A DNA stretch of 64,000 bases from Leptonemataceae bacterium (lineage in GTDB: Bacteria > Spirochaetota > Leptospiria > Leptospirales > Leptonemataceae), in assembly GCA_965227295.1 (NCBI GenBank), contig OZ245742.1, positions 2,944,001-3,008,000 on the forward strand. The letters are read 5' to 3'. Shown here one piece after another: positions 44,254 through 45,216 of the stretch. The position numbers were made by a program, and so were the translations under genes. A model generated the notes under the pieces. The model did not search any database and was not told where the DNA came from. It saw only the letters and a list, made by a program, of their open reading frames with translations. Each line of letters begins with the position of its first letter. The stretch's first letter is position 1.

Positions 44254-45216
44254 CACAATTCCGCAACTTACTTCATGTTTCTCACGGCAACGCAACGAAC
44301 CGCAACTCTTGAACTACCGGAAACGCGCGGGTAGTTCGCACACGCCCCGATTCGTGGTGTAAGTAGCGGCCAGTGTACATTAAGGCTTTTATGGGTACGG
44401 CTGGTTCCAGCTGACGAGCGGAGGTCATGCCGGGGATTTTGGTAAGGCGCACCGGAACGGCGTCTTCGCCGTGAGGAACGCTGCGGGAGCTGAGTCACAA
44501 ACCAGCGTCCGGGTCGAGGCGGACTATCTTAACAAAACGACATACCACAACTCCCGCTCAGCCGTAGCCATAAAGATCCCTTCACAATTCCGCAACTTAC
44601 TTCATGTTTCTCGCGGCAACGCAACGAACCGCAACTCTTGAACTACCGGAAACGCGCGGGTAGTTCGCACACGCCCCGAATCCTGGTGTAAGTAGCGGCC
44701 AGTGTACATTAAGGCTTTTATGGGTACGGCTGGTTCCAGCTAACGAGCGGAGGTCATGCCGGGGATTTTGGTAAGGCGCACCGGAACGGCGTCTTCGCCG
44801 TGAGGAACGCTGCGGGAGCTGAGTCTCACAACCAGCGTCCGGGTCGAGGCGGACTATCTTAACAAAACGACATACCACAACTCCCGCTCAGCTGTAGCCA
44901 TCAAAACCCCTTCACAATTCCGCAACTTACTTCATATTTTTTGCGGCAAAGGCAACGAAACGCGGCTCTTGAACTACCGGAAATGTTTCCTTCGTTCGAG
45001 CACGCTCCGAATCGTGGTGTAAGTAGCGGCCAGTGTACATTAAGGCTTTTATGGGTACGGCTGGTTCCAGCTAACGAGCGGAGGTCATGCCGGGGATTTT
45101 GGTAAGGCGCACCGGAACGGCGTCTTCGCCGTGAGGAACGCTGCGGGAGCTGAGTCACAAACCAGCGTCCGGGTCGAGTCGGACTATCTTAACAAAACGA
45201 CATACCACAACTCCCG
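44254..45216 (+). repeat. ~330-bp repeat family, array 5 left part (3 near-identical units, last one interrupted)
   Basis: CACAATTCCGCAACTTAC at 44254, 44583 and 44913 (period 329/330). Confidence 0.97.

Follow-up and report, generated by a model that had tools for sequence, protein, structure and literature searches.

Repetitive extragenic palindromic (REP) sequences are G+C-rich palindromes of about 35 to 40 bp. REP sequences and bacterial interspersed mosaic elements (BIMEs) occupy extragenic sites, frequently at 3′ ends or between convergent genes; BIMEs occur as tandem clusters that vary in copy number and combine hairpin motifs with linkers into mosaics, can be cotranscribed, and carry recombination and protein-binding sites (PMC3184786, in part). 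We analyzed a stretch of 64,000 nucleotides from a Leptonemataceae bacterium (contig OZ245742.1, positions 2,944,001 to 3,008,000 of the forward strand; hereafter, the window, with positions counted from its first letter), in which a repeat of about 330 bp with nested inverted arms forms intergenic arrays; the focal array, A5, spans 44254 to 45216. With even confidence, we interpret this repeat as a lineage-restricted, noncoding, mosaic foldback DNA repeat that resembles a giant BIME, a neisserial intergenic mosaic element (NIME), or an element of the enterobacterial repetitive intergenic consensus (ERIC) type; the array is most likely not a gene for a conserved rod-shaped RNA. We favor a DNA repeat because folding shows no strand preference and no consensus fold is conserved; because modules are mosaic, one hairpin is found both ways round, arrays have ragged ends, and some units have decayed; and because the sites are intergenic, with three of six independent arrays between convergent genes, as for REP (PMC3184786, in part).

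The preliminary description likened the arrays to a giant BIME, and we judge the comparison apt: all seven arrays are intergenic, and hairpin modules (M1 to M4, below) make the units a mosaic. Unlike REP and BIMEs, the units here are 295 to 497 bp, with four nested arms of 8 to 17 nt and a 130-nt core; an alternating orientation of homologous halves is unsupported, and a Pfam scan of the 53 open reading frames (ORFs) in the window found no REP-associated tyrosine transposase (RAYT). This comparison concerns architecture and setting and does not extend to sequence similarity.

In NIMEs, RS units are bounded by dRS3 repeats, and dRS3 is a prophage target. NIMEs have also been linked to recombination (PMC3184786, in part). 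Our repeat shares with them the intergenic arrays, units of tens to hundreds of base pairs, short inverted-repeat boundaries, and a short repeat targeted by integrating elements (here, an island inserted in CCACAA|CTCCCG). It differs in that the organisms are unrelated, sequence, length, and architecture are other than in NIMEs, and the whole unit is homologous.

ERIC/IRU, Correia, RUP, and MaeMITE elements (150 to 435 bp) are noncoding imperfect palindromes with terminal inverted repeats; bacterial miniature inverted-repeat transposable elements (MITEs) occupy intergenic transcribed regions, have insertion-derived size variants, and can alter mRNA stability (PMC3184786, in part). A MITE containing a minisatellite is described in Porphyromonas gingivalis (PMC4596501, in part). 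If the unit ends are set in its T hairpin, our repeat has comparable inverted termini (GGTAGTTC...GAACTACC, followed by the D/U and 16-nt arms); it is also noncoding, as no codon periodicity is seen, and multicopy, with 26 profile hidden Markov model (HMM) matches. However, MITEs are mostly dispersed single copies with target-site duplications, whereas six of our seven loci are head-to-tail arrays or fragments of them. No parent insertion sequence was found: there is no transposase in the window and no plasmid or phage match. In how it works, the repeat is like BIMEs, NIMEs, and ERIC-type MITEs, which share with it an intergenic location, an abundance of hairpins, a mosaic build, possible cotranscription, and use as targets of recombination or insertion (PMC3184786, in part); by size, architecture, and probably sequence, it is a member of none of them.

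As far as our searches of species genomes, plasmids, and phages reach, the family is lineage restricted. A degenerate 20-base pattern that matches all 16 copies in the window found four stretches in 185,579 species genomes (the window's own genome was not among the matches and so is absent from, or masked in, that collection); since none of the four fits the unit HMM, we regard them as chance matches. A blastn search of plasmids and phages gave no match. A full-text literature search, whose scope did not include any publication of this genome itself, found no description of a repeat of this kind; the arrays treated in a preprint (10.64898/2026.10.21.760802) have periods of 5 to 79 nt.

Inverted arms, invariant blocks, and modules of the repeat unit

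The seven intergenic arrays contain about 16 core-bearing units, each marked by CTGGTTCCA, and are delimited by landmark motifs in the fixed order U-T-D-W-G-S-K-Q. A profile HMM built from 15 units covers 5,649 of the 64,000 bases of the window with its 26 matches and has none in four control loci. Array A5 (44254 to 45216, + strand), in which this landmark order and HMM matches agree with Tandem Repeats Finder, comprises 2.9 copies of a 329-bp period with 94% matches; its right end at 45216 was cut by insertion of the island.

Each inverted arm quoted in the preliminary description is present at its place in A5. An inverted-repeat search recovered the 16-nt stem (TTTATGGGTACGGCTG/CAGCCGTAGCCATAAA, 44388 to 44403 and 44559 to 44574; 94% complementary), the core of the D/U pair (CCGCAACTTAC/GTAAGTAGCGG, 11 nt, 44261 to 44271 and 44359 to 44369; 91%), and the T hairpin (GAACTACC/GGTAGTTC, 8 nt, 44311 to 44318 and 44330 to 44337; 100%). 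None of 300 dinucleotide shuffles produced an arm as long as 16 nt with one mismatch or fewer (maximum, 13 nt); therefore, the arms are real and beyond chance. The T hairpin belongs to the T region (44306 to 44337), which also includes the block CTCTTGAACTACCGG (44306 to 44320).

The full U arm, CCGCAACTTACTTCATG (44261 to 44277), pairs with the D arm, CGTGGTGTAAGTAGCGG (44353 to 44369); the D arm one period earlier is an equally good partner. The D/U pair recurs outside A5, as the preliminary description had reported for the array near 60.7 kb, where 16 of 17 positions pair: in every other array, the D arms (17 of 17) match a neighboring U arm at 10 to 16 of 17 positions. Pairing of D with the upstream or the downstream U scores alike. 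The third arm, GAGCGGAG (44416 to 44423), has its partner CTCCCGCTC at 44551 to 44559, and only the portion CGGAG/CTCCG of this pair is common to all units. The fourth, TTTTGGTAAG (44437 to 44446) with CTTAACAAAA (44528 to 44537), is specific to A5 and not conserved; the corresponding helices (9-10) are paired in 62 to 70% of cells over 15 units.

A basic unit of ~295 to 330 bp thus has a T stem of 8 bp, D/U arms of 17 nt, a 16-nt stem, and a 5- to 9-nt stem; the nested arms enclose a core of ~130 nt with five invariant blocks, and units follow one another head to tail. Core identity between units has a median of 78% (range, 64 to 98%). Of 292 core columns, 107 are invariant, and they are clustered: five runs of at least seven columns were seen versus 0.137 expected (0 of 5,000 permutations), so parts of the unit are constrained. 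The invariant blocks are TAAGT, which lies within the D arm of A5 at 44360 to 44364; CTGGTTCCA (44401 to 44409), identical in 15 of 15 aligned units; CGTCTTC (44461 to 44467), which forms the loop and closing pairs of a small hairpin, ACGGCG-TCTT-CGCCGT; CGTCCGG (44506 to 44512); and, between 44533 and 44556, CAAAACGA (44533 to 44540) and CCACAACT(C)CCG (44545 to 44556), the latter being the crossover site of the island.

Such constraint bears on whether the arrays are simply neutral, satellite-like tandem duplications without function or mobility, whose arms are accidents carried along by duplication. Local duplication has been recent in A5 and A7, the only arrays that are internally homogeneous (95 to 98% and 95% identity, respectively), and pairing in the other units is explicable by sequence conservation alone. 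We nevertheless find this origin highly improbable: seven separate arrays occupy unrelated intergenic sites within 64 kb, the family is old by its median identity, yet clustered blocks are invariant in 15 of 15 units, and the 16-nt arm was never reached by the 300 shuffles.

Units differ by the presence or absence of four hairpin modules: among the 15 units, M1 occurs in four, M2 in four, M3 in two, and M4 in two, and their combinations do not follow array membership. The 103-nt M2 arose as an internal duplication that encloses a long imperfect hairpin and is bounded by the direct repeat GGCGGACCGGAACGGCGTCTTC; its sites are 16700 to 16830, 17500 to 17640, 42565 to 42660, 60615 to 60650, and 61110 to 61150. 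A 16-nt hairpin, TCTCGCTTCGGCGAGA, has six identical copies, all within arrays (24693 to 24708, 41195 to 41210, 41787 to 41802, 42310 to 42325, 60477 to 60492, and 60974 to 60989), at two different unit positions. It has the orientation of the unit in M1 (four copies) and is inverted in M4 (two copies), so that its loop reads UUCG one way and CGAA the other. DNA would be expected to carry such insertions either way round, whereas an RNA under selection for a UUCG loop would not.

The unit is noncoding. Column entropy by codon phase is flat (0.45/0.42/0.44), and 1-nt indels break the frame; a 93-amino-acid (aa) minus-strand ORF over the unit is spurious, with no relatives among 5.8 billion proteins.

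Folding, covariation, and the case for a structured RNA

The repeat does not fold into a conserved rod. The preliminary description held the unit to be almost entirely self-complementary and rod-like, but its circular minimum free energy (MFE) structure pairs only 206 of 329 nt. The continuous rod proposed for a circular monomer is not supported: the outer stems of both halves do lie on one axis of the circle, but the interior of the larger half is multibranched and includes a long unpaired stretch. Nor did we find support for the idea that the arrays are ancient 165-bp halves in alternating orientation, because local alignment of the doubled unit with its own reverse complement was weak (z = 3.8, 2.8, 0.1, and 1.7 in the four units aligned); inverted halves are therefore unsupported beyond the discrete arms.

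Folding energies proved only marginally better than those of shuffled sequences, and to the same degree on both strands. For circular MFE folds, z was −2.68 in unit 1 and −0.80 in unit 2; for linear RNA folds it was −2.42 (+ strand), −2.29 (− strand), and −1.65 (shifted phase); and for a DNA fold it was −2.09. Across 13 complete units, mean z was −2.38 sense and −2.30 antisense (range, +0.29 to −7.47). The 464-nt units with both M1 and M2 fold most strongly (−7.47 and −6.56), and the six units of 295 to 307 nt without an inserted module range from −0.26 to −3.22.

It is against these data that the first alternative must be weighed, namely, that the units are genes or untranslated-region modules for a new structured noncoding RNA of ~300 nt, made from the + strand, in which the D/U and 16-nt stems close the molecule, the unpaired invariant blocks are binding or tertiary-contact sites, and the arrays provide many copies or are processed to monomers. 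We consider this unlikely. Over the 15-unit alignment, the fold of the reference unit (94 pairs) is paired in 80.6% of cells versus 80.2% when partners are shuffled among sequences, a level attained in 40 of 500 shuffles. Sequence conservation and one-sided changes account for the retained pairing of the D/U stem (88% of cells) and the 16-nt stem (80%). With the same control, two-sided changes affect seven pairs versus 7.1 in shuffles, and 73 of 500 shuffles match the covariation score. RNAalifold found 34 and 26 pairs, depending on phase, of which two and one are compensatory, with covariation terms of +0.27 and −0.03. Finally, an alifoldz-style test of 13 units (294 core columns, ~78% identity), with column shuffles as the control, yielded a structure conservation index (SCI) of 0.36 (z = −0.94) on the + strand, and the − strand was no worse (SCI, 0.39; z = −1.23). 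The preliminary description had pointed to a structured RNA or single-stranded DNA element, possibly with a circular intermediate; the lack of covariation and the low SCI, which largely agree with the outcomes it named as refuting, argue against the RNA, albeit with modest power, as the covariation tests draw on 13 to 15 paralogous units.

Other features are those that such an RNA might be expected to show. The invariant blocks are clustered and, in the MFE fold of the first A5 unit (A5a), mostly unpaired; unit length varies by entire hairpins, one with a C(UUCG)G loop. G:T cells exceed A:C cells by 30 to 5 in the D/U stem and by 132 to 101 over all helices, a count biased by the use of a + strand fold to define the structure. 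The small UCUU hairpin toggles between G-C and G-U, 7 to 7, and one compensatory C-G to A-U double change distinguishes the M2 hairpins of A2 and A7 (by eye). Set against these are the z scores of module-free units, about −0.3 to −3.2 and equal on both strands, the TCTCGCTTCGGCGAGA hairpin in both orientations, and the many truncated units.

Promoter and terminator signals likewise speak against an RNA gene. The T block does not fit a σ70 promoter, as TTGAAC is followed after 17 nt by nothing resembling a −10 box (by eye). A promoter scan of 40600 to 45400 returned three sites with 9 of 12 matches each, all in the U region, versus 1.7 ± 1.6 in shuffles; terminator-like sites numbered 14 versus 6.9 ± 2.7 expected, all of them weak and on the − strand, and the + strand had none. 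Neither a σ54 box, the DnaA-box-like TCCACA, nor integron core sites fit (by eye, against consensus sequences).

No Rfam family claims the element, in agreement with the preliminary description, which could assign it to none: at gathering score, there were no matches in the entire window. At relaxed E values, three arrays gave only chance-level matches (sR2, 14.1 bits with a cutoff of 42; sX15, 23.8 with 55; istR, 18.9 with 45; none in 60200 to 61450). The models searched include hammerhead, twister, pistol, hatchet, HDV-like, group II intron, and STAXI, and no hammerhead or other self-cleaving family was found even at E values up to 10. By eye, 4 of 15 units contain CTGACGA, but without the conserved GAAA of a hammerhead and without an Rfam match.

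The STAXI RNA motif, which is taken to be in Rfam, consists of tandem structured units near integrase genes. Our repeat, too, is a tandem, hairpin-rich, noncoding unit with an integrase gene nearby; unlike STAXI, it has no Rfam match at gathering level, and its unit is several times larger.

Arrays, their neighbors, and their ends

The arrays lie next to ordinary chromosomal genes: hisG and genes for a PrsW-family protease, a sodium:solute symporter, a melibiase-like hydrolase, and a major facilitator superfamily transporter, as well as fliY/fliN-fliO. A1 (2227 to 2540, +) is a single unit in the phase D...U, located directly 3′ of the hisG stop codon. A2 (16593 to 17808, +) has three units, two with the 103-nt M2 and one with M3, and A3 (24426 to 25202, −) has two, the second with M1 and M3. 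A4 (40745 to 42660, +), which lies between convergent genes, consists of a partial unit, four full units, and a truncated one, with modules M4, M1, M4, and M2. A6 (57920 to 58126, +) is A5 continued past the island (Q-U-T-D), and A7 (60357 to 61337, +) contains two 497-bp units with M1 and M2.

A2, A3, and A4 are the three of six independent arrays that lie between convergent ORFs, and A1, A2, A4, and A7 start at or just past a stop codon. A1 and A7 have the same orientation as the genes on either side, as would suit transcription of a structured RNA, whereas A5/A6, which is antisense to both of its original neighbors, does not. A7 lies between fliY/fliN and fliO. This ~1-kb array, in a gap from 60261 to 61462, separates co-oriented fliY/fliN (59184 to 60260) and fliO (61463 to 62434) within what is normally one flagellar operon.

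Many units are incomplete. Array ends are ragged, and truncated or internally deleted units include the first of A3 (A3a), which is without one strand of a conserved helix; the last of A4 (A4e), which is truncated; and a mini-unit in A6 (58046 to 58126, +), in which the D arm is followed by 6 nt and then a U-like arm, the entire core being gone. Retention of D and U as a short hairpin after removal of the core can also be counted in favor of a structured RNA.

If the repeat is a foldback DNA element, its arrays may have grown and been reshuffled as DNA by unequal crossing-over, gene conversion, or hairpin- or site-specific recombination, and its arms may have been retained since the repeat propagates, or is recognized, as a foldback. 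Because blocks of the unit are constrained and one of them is used in recombination (see below), we propose the blocks as protein-recognition sites; putative ligands include recombinases and nucleoid proteins. Transcription of the arrays is predicted to be passive only, as 3′ tails or operon spacers of neighboring genes, and, as with REP and ERIC elements, the hairpins in such transcripts may influence mRNA ends.

Several points weigh against this interpretation of the arrays as DNA repeats. All evidence comes from one 64-kb window of one genome. In A2 and A4, units diverge among themselves as much as from those of other arrays; thus, recent amplification is evident only in A5 and A7. By eye, the ends of A1, A2, and A7 show no consistent target-site duplication (a shared AACG is present at A7 only), and transposases, RAYTs, and HUH enzymes are all missing from the 53 window ORFs scanned with Pfam. 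The clustering of invariant blocks and the insertion of whole hairpins are also expected of a functional RNA, and the G:T excess of the D/U stem, together with the toggling UCUU hairpin, hints at folding of the + strand as a single strand.

Array ends are also relevant to a second alternative: a small circular or rolling-circle element of ~330 nt (single-stranded DNA, double-stranded DNA, or RNA derived) that opens within the T-hairpin loop and is integrated head to tail by an enzyme, either site specific or hairpin dependent, whose gene lies elsewhere. Such an element would thereby explain arrays of whole units in fixed orientation. Both ends of A1, A2, and A7 lie within the T hairpin: their starts fall in or just after the T loop or in the 3′ half of the T stem, and their ends in the 5′ half of the stem or in the loop. 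By our reading, four of six array starts and four of six ends fall within unit positions ~40 to 85, a range that was picked post hoc; A3, A4, and A5/A6 end in other phases. A monomer cut in T would have complementary termini and could form a panhandle from T, the D/U arms, and the 16-nt stem. GC skew is positive on the strand that carries five of the six independent arrays, as would fit insertion into single-stranded DNA at replication forks, and the junctions of the island demonstrate that a tyrosine recombinase acts on a different conserved block of the unit. However, in the window we found no recombinase, HUH, or Y1 enzyme in association with the arrays, nor any ribozyme or known origin motif; overall, we regard a circular element as very unlikely.

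Tandem repeats of ~330 bp with hammerhead ribozymes are known as viroid-like sequences, retrozymes, and satellite DNA, all of them eukaryotic. Our repeat is similar in period and tandem arrangement, but it has no ribozyme and no rod fold and lies on a bacterial chromosome; that its fold is not viroid-like also argues against a circular element.

A related possibility, which we rate as quite unlikely, is that the repeat is a new kind of hairpin-dependent element, a monomer of ~330 nt (a single-stranded DNA circle or an RNA) that is cut in the T loop, forms a panhandle, and is inserted head to tail by an enzyme encoded elsewhere in the genome, with the invariant blocks as its putative recognition sites, or else that the units are multicopy genes for a new large RNA processed at T. 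Such an element would accommodate the T-hairpin ends of A1, A2, and A7, the mini-unit in which a short loop joins D and U, the bias toward one strand, and the clustering of invariant blocks; its RNA version is opposed by the missing covariation and low SCI among 13 to 15 paralogues.

Cumulative GC skew climbs almost steadily over 1 to 64000, and the + strand, which carries five of the six independent arrays, is the G-rich strand. Orientation of the arrays may be biased relative to replication.

A 12.7-kb island within the focal array

An island of 12,703 bp (45217 to 57919, +) is inserted in A5/A6. It is flanked by an 11-bp direct repeat, CACAACTCCCG, at 45206 to 45216 and 57920 to 57930, and its ends are inverted: TTGTGTAAAGAGAAG (45217 to 45231) and CTTTTCTTTACACAA (57910 to 57924) match at 14 of 15 positions (manual count). 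The junction lies in the invariant block CCACAA|CTCCCG. Removal of the island restores a unit identical to its neighbor at 314 of 330 positions, although this join is one base short. A tyrosine recombinase gene (Pfam Phage_integrase, E = 2e-13) is situated at the left end of the island, at 45255 to 46298; in the protein collection, its product has only one relative at 50% identity. G+C content is 56.8% in the island versus 59.4% in the window, and the island also encodes a helix-turn-helix protein (56071 to 56556).

From these junctions, we infer site-specific integration in which 15-bp inverted arms flank a 6-bp overlap (CTCCCG); as far as the sequence of the locus can tell, the invariant block demonstrably served as the recombination (crossover) site for this integrase-borne island. 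ARAGORN found no tRNA or tmRNA gene in the window, so neither is a candidate target of the island. With at most one mismatch, CCACAACTCCCG is found at 10 sites in the window; therefore, the family supplies many such integration sites. If the mosaic-repeat interpretation is correct, such arrays can provide integrase-borne islands with many copies of an attachment site, which is relevant to genome plasticity.

Integron cassettes resemble the arrays in some respects. Both have head-to-tail units of a few hundred base pairs in one orientation, with a tyrosine recombinase nearby, and an imperfect hairpin per unit, possibly acting as single-stranded DNA, with junctions inside the hairpin. Here, however, entire units are homologous, not the hairpin alone. 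Integron core sites have the consensus RYYYAAC/GTTRRRY, which by eye is absent from the T and U/D arms. The nearby recombinase scores 25.9 bits against the integron-integrase model TIGR02249, whose cutoff is 265, and its gene belongs to the island.

If our interpretation of the arrays as mosaic DNA repeats is correct, this sparsely sampled lineage would have an unusually large and dense intergenic repeat, which occupies ~9% of the 64-kb window and whose arrays will confuse gene callers and screens for noncoding RNAs. Should one of the minority interpretations hold, the repeat would instead be a new, abundant structured RNA or a hairpin-dependent mobile element, and of real interest as such.

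The island also encodes a protein of 1,843 aa (49199 to 55155 region) whose N terminus matches TIGR04388 ("Lepto_longest," E = 6e-108) and which has a PT-HINT/intein-like domain near residue 1450, a layout like that of polymorphic toxins. G+C content falls to 49 to 52% over the 3′ end of its gene, and a small adjoining ORF (54727 to 55155) could encode an immunity protein. Elsewhere in the window, two adjacent paralogous genes at 26249 to 38371 encode proteins of ~2,000 aa each, with Ser/Thr kinase, AAA_16 ATPase, GAF, Hpt, and HATPase_c domains; they share DNA blocks of 70 to 84% identity at a spacing of ~5.93 kb. Together with FliY and TIGR04388, a hint of a spirochete-like or otherwise sparsely sampled lineage comes from ORFs 6055 to 6969 and 20355 to 21101, which have subthreshold matches to the Leptospira-named LIC13411 adhesin family.

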